Of a stretch of DNA of 64,000 nucleotides, positions 844 to 49,545 are shown piece after piece. Position 1 is the stretch's first letter. Each line of letters begins with the position of its first letter. This stretch comes from Escherichia coli (GTDB taxonomy: Bacteria > Pseudomonadota > Gammaproteobacteria > Enterobacterales > Enterobacteriaceae), in the NCBI RefSeq assembly GCF_003334405.1, contig NZ_QOWM01000011.1. One strand, given 5' to 3'. The position numbers and the translations under genes are program-made. The notes beneath the pieces are model-generated. The model was not told the DNA's origin. It saw nothing but the letters and a program-made list of their open reading frames with translations, and searched no databases.

Positions 844-942
844 GCCTGATGCGCTACGCTTATCAGGCCTACATGGTCCTGCAATATATTGAATTGGCAA
901 GATTTTTGTAGGCCGGATAAGGCGTTCACGCCGCATCCGGCA
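844..942. repeat. Two inverted REP (palindromic unit) elements forming a BIME-like intergenic repeat
   Basis: GCCTGATGCGCTACGCTTATCAGGCCTAC (844-872) and GTAGGCCGGATAAGGCGTTCACGCCGCATCCGGCA (908-942) match the E. coli REP consensus; a second copy of the latter is at 22841-22875. Confidence 0.7.
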
Positions 943-32814: not shown

Positions 32815-34053
32815 ATGAAAGCATTGACTTATCACGGCCCACATCACGTTCAGGTAGAAAATGTTCCCGATCCGGGCGTTGAACAGGCAGATGATATTAT
32901 TCTGCGTATTACGGCAACGGCGATCTGTGGCTCTGACCTCCATCTTTATCGAGGCAAAATACCTCAGGTTAAACATGGCGATATTTTTGGTCATGAATTT
33001 ATGGGGGAAGTAGTTGAAACCGGAAAGGACGTAAAAAATTTGCAAAAAGGCGACCGAGTGGTAATTCCGTTCGTCATTGCTTGTGGCGACTGTTTTTTCT
33101 GTCGATTGCAACAATATGCCGCCTGCGAAAATACCAATGCGGGTAAAGGCGCTGCGCTCAATAAAAAACAGATACCAGCTCCAGCGGCATTGTTTGGTTA
33201 TAGTCACCTGTATGGCGGCGTTCCTGGTGGGCAGGCGGAATATGTCCGCGTCCCTAAAGGGAATGTGGGGCCGTTTAAAGTACCGCCTTTGCTTTCAGAT
33301 GATAAAGCGCTTTTCCTTTCTGATATTCTGCCAACGGCATGGCAGGCAGCAAAAAATGCGCAGATCCAACAAGGTTCAAGCGTTGCAGTCTATGGTGCTG
33401 GTCCTGTGGGATTGTTGACAATCGCCTGTGCACGGTTGCTCGGTGCGGAACAGATTTTTGTTGTTGATCATCATCCCTACCGCTTGCATTTCGCCGCCGA
33501 CCGCTACGGCGCGATCCCGATTAATTTTGATGAAGACAGCGATCCGGCACAGTCAATTATTGAACAAACGGCAGGTCACCGGGGCGTGGATGCAGTAATA
33601 GACGCCGTCGGTTTTGAAGCGAAAGGCAGCACCACGGAAACGGTGCTGACTAACCTGAAACTGGAGGGCAGCAGCGGTAAAGCGTTGCGTCAGTGTATTG
33701 CGGCGGTCAGGCGTGGCGGCATTGTTAGCGTACCGGGCGTCTACGCTGGATTTATTCACGGTTTCCTGTTTGGCGACGCCTTTGATAAAGGGTTGTCGTT
33801 TAAAATGGGACAGACCCACGTTCACGCATGGCTGGGAGAATTATTACCGTTAATTGAGAAAGGATTACTGAAACCAGAAGAAATTGTTACCCACTATATG
33901 CCGTTTGAAGAGGCCGCCCGGGGATATGAGATTTTCGAAAAACGTGAAGAGGAGTGCCGTAAGGTGATTCTGGTACCCGGTGCACAAAGCGCAGAGGCGG
34001 CGCAGAAGGCGGTTTCAGGTCTGGTGAATGCGATGCCGGGGGGAACAATATGA
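32815..34053 (+). CDS. ybdR: Zn-dependent alcohol dehydrogenase-family oxidoreductase (412 aa)
   Basis: MDR/ADH signature with structural-zinc cysteines (CGDCFFC) and GAGPVG NAD motif. Confidence 0.85.
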
Positions 34054-34283
34054 TCGTCAGGAGTGGTTTTCGAGGTAAAGGACAGCCATGACGATAATCG
34101 CCGCCATAATCAGAAATCCTATCAGGATGTAAAATGCTTCTGCCATGGTTATTCCCACAAACGAAACGGAATAATTTTGCAGCAAAAGTGAACAGTGAGA
34201 ACCAGGAAAAATTGCTGATTTTGCGTAAAGAGGATGCGAGTGCATCCTCTGGGCAAAGCGAGTTATCGCTTGTGCAGATGGGA

Positions 34284-34694: not shown

Positions 34695-34741
34695 TTTTAC
34701 TCCATGTCGTCGGTGCTGCGAGTGTCGCAGATAAACATACC

Positions 34742-34776
34742 CAAAAGAAAACCCTCACCGTCAGGCGGCGAGGGTT
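34742..34776 (-). terminator. Possible rho-independent terminator downstream of rna
   Basis: Hairpin AACCCTCACCG...CGGCGAGGGTT followed by a U-rich stretch on the minus-strand transcript. Confidence 0.4.
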
Positions 34777-34923
34777 TAACTCACATGATGATACTGACTG
34801 TTGCTCACTCTTTGAAGTGATTTGCGTCACATTCAGGGAATTCCTCAATGCAGCGCATTATGTATAAATCTTAATCGCCTTGGTTTATGGAAGACGAATT
34901 AGCGTGTTTTGTAAATCAGATGA

Positions 34924-45309: not shown

Positions 45310-46695
45310 TTACTTGCCTGTGACCGCTGCTGCCGTTCCTGGCACCATCAGCTCTGTAGCAACGATAACAATCACCAAACCAACAAGCACCGGTACCGAG
45401 GTGCGTTTTACGACTTCAAACGGCGAGATCTTCGCCATCCCGGCAACCGCAACGACTACGCCAGAAACGGGCGAAAGGGTACGGCCAAGGTTTGACGCCT
45501 GCAGCATCGGGATAGTCAAATACGCCGGGTTAATGCCGGAAGAGTGCGCCAGTTTCGGGATCATCTCAACAAACGCATAAAACGGCGCATTGCCTGAACC
45601 GGTCGTGACTGCCGCCAGCATTGTCAGAATCACCAATACCAGCATCAGGATGATACTCGCCGAACCAAACGAGGTAGCGATAGAAATCAGACTTTGAATA
45701 AAGCCGATGGTGCTAAGCCCCTGAGCGAATACCCCAGCGGCAACCAGCAGCATCACCACGTTAGCAAACGCATCTGCCATCCCGCGATAAGCCACTTCCA
45801 GACCAGAGAAAACTTTCTGGGTATTAAAGCTGCGGAGGAACTCCAGAATGGAGGCAATCAGCATACAAATCACCAGAATAGTGATGATGTGTAATTGCGG
45901 ACCCCATTTACCGTCAAAAATCAGTACACCGATGATCGGCGTGAACGGCAAAATGGCATAAAACGCAGGAGCAGTGGTGGTGATTTCACTGACATCTAAC
46001 ATTTCATGAGAGATGTGCTCTTTTTTATCCAGATAACGTTGCCAGAAGAAGTGGGCGATCGCCATGCCGATAATTGCAGCAATTGAGATAGGCAGCGTCG
46101 TTTTGAAGGCGAAGTCAATCAGCGACATTTCGGAAGCTTGCGCCGCCAGCACCACATCCCCTGAAGTCGGTGCGAGAATAATCGCCGCCGGGGAGGCACA
46201 AATGGCAGCAGCTGCGCCACGACTGATACCAACGTTTACCATCACCGGAAATAGGGTTGCCATCAGCAAAACACCCAGACCGGTTGCGGAAGAGACGGCC
46301 AGAGACATCAGACAGGCGACAAAATAGGCGGCAATCATCAGCAGGTAAGGGGAGTTAATATACTGCAATGGTTTTGACGCCAGCTTGACCACCATATCAT
46401 TCGCGCCGATATGGGTCATGTAAGCGGCAAATCCACACAGCATCATAATCATCATGCCGAGGTCGCCGCCGCGGCTCATTAGTAATATTTTAACGTATTC
46501 AACGATATCCGTGGCGCTGTAGCCTGTTGAAGCCTGGCTGGACGGTAACACTTTGTGCCCCATAATGGCACTGATAATCAGCAATAACAGGCCACCGACA
46601 AATAACACACCAGTGGCGGAATACCCTTTAATGATGTAGCGAGCTACACCCACAATAACCACAACCCCAATAAGGAGCTCAATGAATGTCAGCAT
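45310..46695 (-). CDS. dcuC: Anaerobic C4-dicarboxylate transporter (461 aa)
   Basis: Polytopic membrane protein MLTFIELLIGVVVIVGVARYIIKGY...; matches DcuC; intact, with no IS interruption. Confidence 0.9.
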   Translation of the reverse strand: MLTFIELLIGVVVIVGVARYIIKGYSATGVLFVGGLLLLIISAIMGHKVLPSSQASTGYSATDIVEYVKILLMSRGGDLGMMIMMLCGFAAYMTHIGANDMVVKLASKPLQYINSPYLLMIAAYFVACLMSLAVSSATGLGVLLMATLFPVMVNVGISRGAAAAICASPAAIILAPTSGDVVLAAQASEMSLIDFAFKTTLPISIAAIIGMAIAHFFWQRYLDKKEHISHEMLDVSEITTTAPAFYAILPFTPIIGVLIFDGKWGPQLHIITILVICMLIASILEFLRSFNTQKVFSGLEVAYRGMADAFANVVMLLVAAGVFAQGLSTIGFIQSLISIATSFGSASIILMLVLVILTMLAAVTTGSGNAPFYAFVEMIPKLAHSSGINPAYLTIPMLQASNLGRTLSPVSGVVVAVAGMAKISPFEVVKRTSVPVLVGLVIVIVATELMVPGTAAAVTGK

Positions 46696-47283
46696 AATTT
46701 TTCCTGTCTCCAGGCCCCAAAGTAAATAATAAAAAATTCCTAAAGCTTAAGGAAAAAATATGCCCAATAAATTGGCGATGAATGCTGATTAAAATCAATA
46801 AAAACTGCCATTAAGACATTGAAGTTGCTGTTTTTATACATAGATAACAAAACGCATATTTAGCGGTTGGCAATTATCACATAATAATGTGTGCAAATTG
46901 ATGGTGGATTGATGCAAATTTGTTAATTGCAATGGTGTTAGCTGCGGCTGTGCGCTCAAAAAATAATCTAATATGAGCATAGGTTGACGATATATATTAT
47001 ATACTTCGTTAAGATGATTGTTGTATCTCGTTAAAAAATAAAATAATTTTTCCTTGATTGCATTTTGTCATCAAAAAAGACTTGGTTTTTCTTTTTTGAC
47101 TATTCCCATCGCAGAAAACGACGCATCATCTTTAATCGATGCGCGGAAATATTTAACTTGAACAAGCGGAAATAAATAGAGCAGCTATTCAGATTATTCT
47201 TTATGTTGGGTCTATTAAGGTTATGTTAATTGTAGCTTTGCTATGCTAGTAGTAGATTTTTGATAAATGTTTTATGGTCACAA

Positions 47284-47844
47284 ATGAACGTGAGTAAATA
47301 TGTCGCTATCTTTTCCTTTGTTTTTATTCAGTTAATCAGCGTTGGTAAAGTTTTTGCTAACGCAGATGAGTGGATGACAACGTTTAGAGAAAATATTGCA
47401 CAAACCTGGCAACAGCCTGAACATTATGATTTATATATTCCTGCCATCACCTGGCATGCACGTTTCGCTTACGACAAAGAAAAAACCGATCGCTATAACG
47501 AGCGACCGTGGGGTGGCGGTTTTGGCCTGTCGCGTTGGGATGAAAAAGGAAACTGGCATGGCCTGTATGCCATGGCATTTAAGGACTCGTGGAACAAATG
47601 GGAACCGATTGCCGGATACGGATGGGAAAGTACCTGGCGACCGCTGGCGGATGAAAATTTTCATTTAGGTCTGGGATTCACCGCTGGCGTAACGGCACGC
47701 GATAACTGGAATTACATCCCTCTCCCGGTTCTACTGCCATTGGCCTCCGTGGGTTATGGCCCAGTGACTTTTCAGATGACCTACATTCCGGGTACCTACA
47801 ACAATGGCAATGTGTACTTTGCCTGGATGCGCTTTCAGTTTTGA
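47284..47844 (+). CDS. pagP: Outer-membrane lipid A palmitoyltransferase (186 aa)
   Basis: [30 protein letters not shown]... matches PagP/CrcA; the track ORF is extended 8 codons. Confidence 0.9.
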
Positions 47845-48018
47845 GACAAATGAAGTTTTAGTAACTTCTTTAAAATCAATAGCTAAAATAAGTAACATCA
47901 AAAATAACGCGACTTTTATCACTTTTTAGTAAAGTTACACTGGACAAAGCGTACCACAATTGGTGTACTGGTAACCGACACAGCATTTGTGTCTATTTTT
48001 CATGTAAAGGTAATTTTG

Positions 48019-48228
48019 ATGTCTAAGATTAAAGGTAACGTTAAGTGGTTTAATGAGTCCAAAGGATTCGGTTTCATTACTCCGGAAGACGGCAGCAAAG
48101 ACGTGTTCGTACACTTCTCTGCAATCCAGACTAATGGTTTTAAAACTCTTGCTGAAGGTCAGCGCGTAGAGTTCGAAATCACTAACGGTGCCAAAGGCCC
48201 TTCTGCTGCAAACGTAATCGCTCTGTAA
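48019..48228 (+). CDS. cspE: Cold-shock-domain protein E (69 aa)
   Basis: [37 protein letters not shown]... has RNP1/RNP2 motifs; the track ORF is extended 10 codons. Confidence 0.95.
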
Positions 48229-48248
48229 GATACGTCAGCAAGAATTCA

Positions 48249-48277
48249 AAACCCGCTTAATCAGCGGGTTTTTTTTG
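48249..48277 (+). terminator. Rho-independent terminator downstream of cspE
   Basis: AACCCGCTTAATCAGCGGGTT hairpin followed by T8; it could also act bidirectionally for crcB. Confidence 0.7.
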
Positions 48278-48751: not shown

Positions 48752-49545
48752 GTGGCAATGCTGGTTGCCGCAGGACAGTTTGCTGTTACATCTGTGTGGG
48801 AAAAGAACGCTGAGATTTGTGCCTCGTTGATGGCGCAGGCGGCGGAAAACGACGTATCGCTGTTTGTCCTGCCGGAAGCATTGCTGGCGCGCGATGATCA
48901 TGATGCAGATCTATCGGTTAAATCAGCACAGCTGCTGGAAGGCGAATTCCTCGGACTTTACGGCGAGAAAGTAAACGTAACATGATGACGACAATTCTGA
49001 CGATTCATGTTCCTTCAACGCCGGGGCGCGCATGGAATATGCTGGTGGCACTTCAGGCAGGAAACATCGTCGCCCGTTATGCCAAACTGCATCTCTATGA
49101 TGCATTTGCCATTCAGGAATCACGCCGTGTTGATGCTGGTAATGAAATCGCTCCGTTACTGGAGGTGGAAGGGATGAAGGTCGGTCTGATGACCTGTTAT
49201 GACTTACGCTTTCCAGAGCTGGCGCTGGCACAGGCATTACAGGGAGCTGAAATCCTGGTACTTCCTGCCGCCTGGGTTCGCGGGCCGCTCAAAGAGCATC
49301 ACTGGTCAACGCTGCTTGCCGCTCGTGCGCTGGATACCACCTGTTATATGGTGGCGGCGGGGGAGTGCGGGAACAAAAATATCGGTCAAAGCCGGATTAT
49401 AGATCCCTTTGGCGTCACCATTGCGGCAGCGTCAGAAATGCCTGCACTCATTATGGCGGAAGTGACGCCCGAACGTGTGCGTCAGGTGCGCGCGCAACTG
49501 CCCGTCTTAAACAACCGTCGCTTTGCGCCGCCGCAATTATTATGA
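48752..49545 (+). pseudogene. ybeM: Frameshifted carbon-nitrogen hydrolase (nitrilase superfamily) gene
   Basis: Two co-directional ORFs in different frames (48752-48985 and 48982-49545) together span a Nit-like protein with catalytic cysteine context ([10 protein letters not shown]); the frame break lies near 48940-48985. Confidence 0.75.

Follow-up and report, generated by a model that had tools for sequence, protein, structure and literature searches.

The 588 bp AT-rich spacer between dcuC and pagP of Escherichia coli is probably a divergent control region without a gene of its own

In the 64 kb stretch of E. coli DNA analysed in the present study (the window; positions are counted from its first letter unless stated otherwise), both the ORF list and the RefSeq annotation place dcuC on the minus strand and pagP on the plus strand, and the spacer between these two divergent coding sequences is therefore 588 bp in length (Table 1). 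No feature is annotated inside it in MG1655 or among the PGAP-annotated genomes listed, and over its whole length it is 100% identical with strain 300709 and 99.8% identical with K-12. It is the longest of the 49 intergenic regions of the window (median 109 bp, runner-up 378 bp), its GC content is 31.3% compared with 51.8% for the window, and the 500 bp stretches with the lowest GC content in the 64 kb fall within it. Twelve A/T runs of at least five nucleotides are present, i.e. 20.4 per kb compared with 3.1 per kb in the rest of the window (6.6 times denser), and the AA/TT helical periodicity is only weakly above that of shuffled sequences. The very AT-rich divergent gap of about 590 bp, with its A/T tracts, that an earlier inspection of the sequence alone (the original prediction) had described is thus present, with exact coordinates.

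The same inspection had pointed to direct TTGAT repeats and to short inverted repeats, and here the outcome was mixed. Two copies of ATTGATG do lie exactly 11 bp apart (46897-46903 and 46908-46914), but the six copies of TTGAT/ATCAA in the spacer compare with 3.1 ± 1.75 expected (P ~0.09), and the repeat is therefore not enriched as a class. Short inverted repeats likewise exist, but the dcuC leader on the minus strand is the sole region of the spacer that folds more stably than shuffled sequences (z ~−3), and sliding windows gave no unusually low folding z-score outside this leader.

Table 1 Features of the dcuC–pagP spacer and its flanking genes, in window coordinates
Feature	Position	Strand	Basis and remarks
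dcuC	45310-46695	-	ORF list and RefSeq annotation
Divergent dcuC–pagP spacer	46696-47283		588 bp, between the two coding sequences
Predicted dcuC 5′ UTR	46696-46750	-	~55 nt; read from sequence
dcuC Shine–Dalgarno AGGA	46702-46705	-	Shine–Dalgarno block conserved across genera
Near-palindrome TTCCTAAAGCTTAAGGAA	46737-46754	-	At the leader start; only EvgA-like palindrome of the spacer, 3 mismatches
Predicted dcuC −10 CATATT	46757-46762	-	Geometry from sequence; CACATT in other genera
FNR box CTGATTAAAATCAA	46785-46798	.	Motif scans; 9/10 consensus positions, 1 mismatch
Escherichia-only block	46800-46975	.	E. whittamii and Escherichia sp. E1V33 are 74-77% identical
Palindrome CACATAATAATGTG	46878-46891		In the Escherichia-only block
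TTTGTTAATT	46919-46928		In the Escherichia-only block
E. coli-specific AT-rich hypervariable core	46976-47190	.	215 bp
Promoter-like TTAAGA-17-TAAAAA	47010-47038	+	RpoD genomic-SELEX prediction (PMC3946193)
Promoter-like ATGACA-17-AATTAT	47071-47043	-	Our own scan and prediction of the RpoD genomic-SELEX authors (PMC3946193)
Terminator-like hairpin	47121-47144	-	Terminator scan; K-12-type allele only
Conserved block ATTCAGATTATTC	47187-47199	+	~55-65 bp 5′ of the predicted pagP start
PhoP box TATTAAggttaTGTTAA	47213-47229	+	Motif scan; 9/12 positions; direct repeat, 5 nt spacer
SlyA-like palindrome TAGCTTTGCTA	47233-47243		Overlaps the predicted pagP −10
Predicted pagP −10 TATGCT	47242-47247	+	Alignment; TATAAT, TACAAT or TATTAT in relatives
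pagP	47284-47844	+	ORF list and RefSeq annotation

At the dcuC end of the spacer, the motif scans located an FNR box centred upstream of a candidate −10 element, the box sitting 96 bp 5′ of the dcuC ATG. To examine its conservation we used orthologous loci from 80 species, obtained with PagP as the query, which included 47 non-E. coli loci with dcuC divergent upstream; an FNR box with two mismatches or fewer, positioned 92-106 bp from the dcuC ATG, is found in 46 of these 47 other Enterobacteriaceae species. A published ChIP-seq study of FNR reports a summit at 655,298 (U00096.2) and assigns dcuC to its Category 1, i.e. directly activated genes (PMC3688515). Using the sigma-54 motif located in both coordinate systems to set the offset between U00096.2 and the window, this summit converts to ~46802, some 10 bp from the centre of the box, so that the FNR site foreseen for dcuC proves to be a conserved box beneath a published FNR summit. 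The predicted −10 belongs to a block, ATGTGCCGAATAAA, that is kept in ten genera in the alignment, and it begins 23 nt past the FNR box; this distance would therefore place the box centre at approximately −41.5 and the transcription start site near 46750, which is the geometry of a class II promoter and which implies a leader of ~55 nt. The ChIP-seq authors flagged dcuC as ‘TSS not in peak region’ and assigned no distance (PMC3688515), and the database start site may therefore lie elsewhere.

At the pagP end, a scan with the PhoP consensus (T/G)GTTTA-N5-(T/G)GTTTA returned a direct repeat on the plus strand, 12 nt from the predicted pagP −10, and in the alignment a motif TGTTAAG-N4-yATTmA, ~70 bp 5′ of pagP, is conserved across genera. 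Transcription of pagP is predicted from this arrangement to start at ~47254, which would give a 5′ UTR of ~30 nt. In Salmonella, footprinting and S1 mapping have established a single PhoP-dependent start site for pagP, with a −10 of TATTAT, a footprinted PhoP box CTGTTTATAGTTTGTTAAG and a second PhoP box upstream (PMC3335776), and both the PhoP box region and the −10 of E. coli align with this footprinted promoter. In Shigella flexneri, a pagP promoter fragment is shifted by PhoP-P in EMSAs, and there are expression data too. The proposed PhoP site for pagP is therefore supported, since box and −10 are conserved across genera in the Salmonella arrangement, and the comparison with the orthologous Salmonella region, which had been put forward as a check, was informative: hexamers and −10 align, within a Salmonella spacer of 403 bp. 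Further upstream, the conserved block ATTCAGATTATTC is kept in Escherichia, Citrobacter and Salmonella, and an RcsB-box-like match with three mismatches (47189-47202) overlaps it.

As regards other regulators, genomic SELEX has placed an H-NS site and a site for the RNA polymerase sigma-70 holoenzyme in the dcuC/pagP spacer in vitro (PMC3946193), and a pagP–lacZ fusion is up 18-fold in an hns deletion mutant (PMC4147861), two results that agree with the suggestion of H-NS binding in the spacer. SlyA acts as an H-NS antagonist and is needed for pagP induction in biofilm (PMC4147861), and that report describes three SlyA-like sites in the pagP promoter region. Motif scanning, another of the checks that had been put forward, succeeded in part, in that the FNR and PhoP boxes were found but matches to the 10 bp H-NS motif in the spacer were poor. 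The AT-rich and A-tract-rich composition of the spacer does fit an H-NS platform. The H-NS site is known at the resolution of the spacer, and we infer that the filler at 46976-47190 serves as the nucleation platform; most likely, H-NS nucleates and spreads on this filler over the pagP promoter and SlyA or PhoP relieves the silencing.

An EvgA site for pagP, which had also been proposed, was not upheld, as the sole EvgA-like palindrome of the spacer is on the dcuC side and published work describes the effect of EvgA on pagP as indirect, via PhoPQ or YdeO–GadE. Scans with simple consensus sequences of CRP, ArcA, NarL, IHF, Fur and Lrp gave no match in the spacer at the thresholds used; an ArcA position-weight-matrix site has been reported there, without ChIP binding (PMC3798270). 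A sigma-54 promoter in the spacer was also considered and rejected. No sigma-54 motif (TGGCAC-N5-TTGCW, two mismatches or fewer) is present in the spacer, a ChIP-seq sigma-54 site, TTGGTAAAGTTTTTGCT, maps to 47342-47358 within the pagP coding sequence, and the RpoN/NtrC genomic-SELEX peak named ‘dcuC/pagP’ (655,760) converts to ~47264, adjoining that site, by which it is best explained.

The recognizable promoter elements occupy ~105 bp on the dcuC side and ~95 bp on the pagP side of the 588 bp, and in Klebsiella and Raoultella the whole spacer measures 284-297 bp. It was thus correct that the E. coli spacer exceeds what the two promoters need. Across the family, Salmonella arizonae has a spacer of 403 bp, most Citrobacter one of 410-465 bp, many Enterobacter one of ~437 bp and Escherichia one of 558-588 bp. 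In some Enterobacter and Kosakonia it reaches 570-1015 bp and contains inserted ORF fragments that are unrelated. The additional DNA in E. coli is of two kinds. The part nearer to dcuC (46800-46975) has no match in genera other than Escherichia and is nearly invariant among E. coli; with its two ATTGATG copies, its palindrome and the short element TTTGTTAATT, this part may bind further regulators or nucleoid proteins. For the part nearer to pagP, the core, no homologue was detected in any other species, and tblastx against the spacers of relatives also found none. An origin of the core in a phage or other mobile element was not supported, as it is single-copy in genomes and has no match in phages or genuine plasmids, the matches filed under plasmids being chromosomal fragments.

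Within E. coli, 30-38% of the alignment columns vary at ~46960-47135, compared with 3-5% in both genes and the remaining spacer, and in 1688 of 5377 genomes the core is only 80-90% identical with that of the window. Against one B2 strain, however, its divergence of 16.6% ranks only about tenth among the 175 bp stretches of the window, and the hypervariability is therefore no special mark of function; the idea that it is exceptional was rejected, since several other parts of the window differ more strongly from the B2 strain. Invariant islands, such as GTTGACGATA, TTAAAAAATAA and GACTATTCCCATCGCAGAAAACGA, are found inside the core.

The original prediction had left room for an unannotated small ORF or small RNA in the spacer, and neither was borne out. 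Eight ORFs of 20-48 amino acids lie in or overlap the spacer, and PGAP annotates small proteins nearby, e.g. yldA, so that small-protein genes do exist in the neighbourhood; nevertheless, most of the eight start with TTG, none has an NCBIfam match at E ≤ 10, none is annotated among the PGAP-annotated genomes listed, and each is disrupted, through stops or frameshifts, in one or more E. coli alleles or sister Escherichia species, which leaves no intact conserved ORF of at least 20 amino acids. We consider a small protein encoded in the spacer to be extremely improbable. An independent sRNA on the pagP strand would be the E. coli counterpart of Ssr31, a 295 nt sRNA predicted between pagP and dcuC, on the pagP strand, of S. 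flexneri 301 (PMC4782007), and this we judge to be very unlikely. Ssr31 was derived from a transcription-unit prediction and was positive by RT–PCR, the spacer contains an in vitro binding site of the sigma-70 holoenzyme, and the plus-strand hexamers TTAAGA and TAAAAA proposed as its promoter (PMC3946193) are both kept in all of the E. coli alleles examined. However, RT–PCR, which was used in that study without Northern blotting or RACE, would also be positive with read-through, with a long pagP leader or with DNA carry-over, and the proposed −10 lacks the final T. Promoter-like sites in the spacer number two, compared with 4.4 expected from shuffled sequences. Rfam returned nothing in the spacer, whether the window was searched at the gathering threshold or the locus alone at E ≤ 10, and on the plus strand the spacer has neither a terminator, according to the terminator scan, nor a window folding better than shuffled sequences, so that the sRNA searches as a whole yielded no sRNA. 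The plus-strand Cappable-seq table, covering the chromosome up to about 1 Mb, contains no start site between 653,077 and 656,393 (U00096.2), which spans the spacer and pagP, and the portions examined of the Kim 2012 and Adams 2021 supplements on transcript starts and 3′ ends, Term-seq included, name neither dcuC nor pagP. In addition, the region in question cannot be aligned beyond E. coli and diverges by 15-18% within the species. The terminator-like hairpin found on the minus strand was rejected as a terminator, being judged non-functional because its left arm varies across alleles and the right arm shows no compensating changes. A different kind of hidden transcript would begin at the minus-strand site ATGACA-17-AATTAT, acting as a distal dcuC promoter with a start at ~47035; in its leader of ~340 nt, the 14 nt segment 46763-46750 would pair with the dcuC Shine–Dalgarno sequence and AUG (46705-46692), to which it is complementary, and the FNR-dependent transcript alone would be translated. 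Our scan and the genomic-SELEX authors arrived at this hexamer pair independently, the known dcuC start site lies outside the FNR peak region (PMC3688515), an 88 nt dcuC leader has a folding energy of −22.5 kcal/mol (z = −3.25) with the Shine–Dalgarno sequence and AUG sequestered, and the three differences that E. whittamii shows in this pairing are all compatible with it. On the other hand, the distal −35 and −10 are lost in the B1, B2 and O157 alleles, RNAalifold detected no consensus structure of the dcuC leader across ten genera, and the leader z-score of about −3 is borderline because ~46 windows were tested. Furthermore, the 5′ arm of the pairing coincides with the −10/start region of the FNR promoter; its conservation is therefore otherwise explained, and only transcripts begun further upstream would contain this arm. 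We thus regard the distal promoter as quite unlikely, and the pairing in the dcuC leader as a curiosity of low probability.

The remaining alternative accepts both promoters and concerns the central ~215-390 bp, which might be functionless drift DNA, i.e. an insertion remnant or filler expanded by slippage, with H-NS silencing requiring promoter-proximal AT-rich DNA only. Klebsiella and Raoultella lack the central DNA yet keep both promoters, relatives have unrelated insertions at the same place, and the core itself is an orphan, hypervariable and tolerant of insertion sequences: one natural strain carries IS1 in the core together with a dpiBA–dcuC deletion, another has an IS3-family element and IS1B there, and a strain exists in which only 150 bp is left upstream of pagP. 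Against drift, the spacer measures 585-588 bp in each E. coli allele fetched, nearly all genomes match at least 80% of it, the invariant islands persist in the core, neither a gene remnant nor a trace of a mobile element is detectable, and IS5 insertions in the spacer have been repeatedly selected under kanamycin (PMC6307192), so that altering this DNA has a phenotype. On balance we find drift rather unlikely, while giving it serious weight. Two more speculative ideas, which together we would still call a long shot, are that the core haplotypes (three or four, deeply diverged: K-12/A, B1/O157 and B2) tune H-NS silencing, and so basal lipid A palmitoylation, by phylogroup, or that the anti-Shine–Dalgarno pairing makes transcripts begun within this promiscuous AT-rich DNA untranslatable and leaves only the FNR-driven mRNA to yield DcuC.

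We conclude that the 588 bp probably form one divergent control region for dcuC and pagP that contains no gene. Its anatomy and pattern of conservation are as described above, and it holds no conserved ORF or conserved RNA structure; the two start sites, at ~46750 and ~47254, are putative and read from the sequence. At the dcuC end (46696 to ~46800), a class II FNR-activated promoter would drive dcuC in anaerobiosis, with FNR on 46785-46798 and RNA polymerase using the −10 at 46762-46757 to start near 46750, giving the leader of ~55 nt. At the pagP end (~47187-47283), a PhoP-activated promoter, with its box at 47213-47229 and its −10 at 47242-47247, would start near 47254. Over the middle ~390 bp, H-NS would bind the AT-rich filler, spread over the pagP promoter and silence pagP, and this silencing would be overcome by SlyA, when cells are in biofilm or in late stationary phase, or by PhoP, when Mg2+ is low. 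The sequence of the filler would not be individually constrained, half of it being Escherichia-only and half E. coli-specific, hypervariable and IS-tolerant.

This reading of the spacer in terms of regulators is supported and had been published before. What is new, and mildly useful, is the map of its family-wide, genus-wide and E. coli-only hypervariable parts, from which allele-swap or deletion experiments on the strain-specific silencing of pagP can be designed directly. The gene pagP controls lipid A palmitoylation and, through it, antimicrobial peptide resistance, inflammatory signalling and biofilm survival, and DcuC, encoded by dcuC, serves succinate export in fermentation. For annotators, promoters and H-NS-bound filler rather than a gene mean that the spacer should be left unannotated; for experimenters, it is useful that specific control would reside in the two ends of ~100 bp.

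The region resembles several known systems. The dcuC promoter resembles class II FNR promoters, in which the box is centred at −41.5, in its near-consensus box, in the −10 located 23 nt downstream, and in its FNR occupancy in vivo and anaerobic activation (PMC3688515), but it differs from them in that the −10 is weak (CATATT or CACATT) and the start is predicted. The pagP promoter of E. coli is similar in position, hexamers and −10 to that of Salmonella, which belongs to PhoP ‘architecture IV’ (Zwir et al. 2012, PMC3335776). However, the best hexamer pair in E. coli is one helical turn nearer to the −10 (12 compared with 23 nt), and the hexamer at the place of the Salmonella upstream half-site is degenerate. 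Insertion of IS5 or IS1 upstream of bgl, flhDC and fucAO activates these H-NS-silenced loci. The spacer is similar in that it has acquired IS5 under laboratory selection (PMC6307192) and IS1 and IS3-family elements naturally. In overall organization there is also a resemblance to the promoters of Salmonella pagC and ugtL and of E. coli hlyE/clyA and fimB, which, like that of pagP, have extended AT-rich DNA upstream to which H-NS binds, strong derepression in hns mutants, a need for SlyA that is confined to the presence of H-NS, and a PhoP box at the core promoter. pagP differs from these in being ancestral and syntenic across the Enterobacteriaceae, rather than a horizontally acquired island, and in that the lineage-specific part of its locus is AT-rich filler and not a gene. 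The dcuC–pagP spacer is a divergent control region silenced by H-NS, of a kind that is already known.

The dcuC-pagP spacer has received natural IS insertions in other strains, and two loci, from strains MINF_8D (L006) and 873.10 (L094), carry them. MINF_8D has lost dpiBA-dcuC with IS1, so that only 150 bp remain upstream of pagP, and in 873.10 the insertion lies in the E. coli-specific hypervariable AT-rich core (46976-47190 in the window). The spacers of Enterobacter cloacae (L055) and Kosakonia oryziphila (L058) are enlarged to 899-1015 bp with a GC content of 44-47%, and because they contain ORF fragments, some pieces of which resemble a membrane transporter, this site gathers insertions in other genera as well.

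At the dcuC end of the spacer, we found a 14 nt inverted repeat in which 46692-46705 and 46750-46763 are complementary at 13 of the 14 positions in minus-strand RNA. On the basis of this complementarity, the segment 46750-46763 would pair with the Shine-Dalgarno sequence and AUG of dcuC (46692-46705), and this anti-Shine-Dalgarno arm shares positions with the -10 and start region predicted for dcuC. Folding of the 88-nt dcuC leader gave a z of -3.25. The pairing is retained in E. whittamii, but not in genera other than Escherichia.

Further strain differences were seen elsewhere in the window. The ybeM-region amidase gene is, by annotation, a frameshifted pseudogene in both the window strain and ATCC 8739; the examined B2 and O158 strains carry an intact copy. 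Comparison with ATCC 25922 also singled out the ybdR and citR regions (32626-34211 and 27186-28485), the former having no counterpart in that strain and the latter showing 15-32% divergence, far above that of adjacent genes. The fepB-entC spacer is approx. 186 bp longer in the window than in ATCC 25922 because a GC-rich repeat, of which there are 6-13 copies per E. coli genome, is missing from this site in the latter strain.

Across the whole window, four Rfam matches were counted at the gathering threshold, one of them covering cspE. A Cappable-seq table lists a very strong plus-strand start at 656,590 (U00096.2), and only weak starts upstream of cspE. With the coordinate offset applied, the strong start falls at about 48094 (+), approx. 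75 nt into the cspE coding sequence, and may reflect either genuine initiation within the gene or an effect of mapping between the csp paralogues.

Coordinates of features in the window and in loci from other strains and species
Feature	Position	Strand	Remark
ES036/CssrF	865-906	-	Rfam; close to entD-fepA
GC-rich repeat element GGGTGAGGG ... CCCTCACCC	15270-15460		fepB-entC spacer
STnc70	29434-29527	+	Rfam; dsbG-ahpC spacer
rnk leader	34740-34848	-	Rfam
Sigma-54 motif TTGGTAAAGTTTTTGCT	47342-47358	+	Inside pagP, signal-peptide codons
cspA-type thermoregulator	47834-48276	+	Rfam; cspE leader and gene
Deaminated glutathione amidase gene (ybeM region)	48758-49545	+	Annotated frameshifted pseudogene
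IS insertion, dcuC-pagP spacer	L006 3248-3945		IS1
IS insertion, dcuC-pagP spacer	L094 266-2485		IS3-family element and IS1B
Enlarged dcuC-pagP spacer	L055 2090-2988		Enterobacter cloacae
Enlarged dcuC-pagP spacer	L058 1977-2991		Kosakonia oryziphila

The sigma-54 motif within pagP has the same sequence as the intragenic ChIP-seq site IS06 (Bonocora et al. 2015) and is the probable source of the genomic-SELEX peak for RpoN/NtrC that was attributed to the dcuC/pagP spacer.
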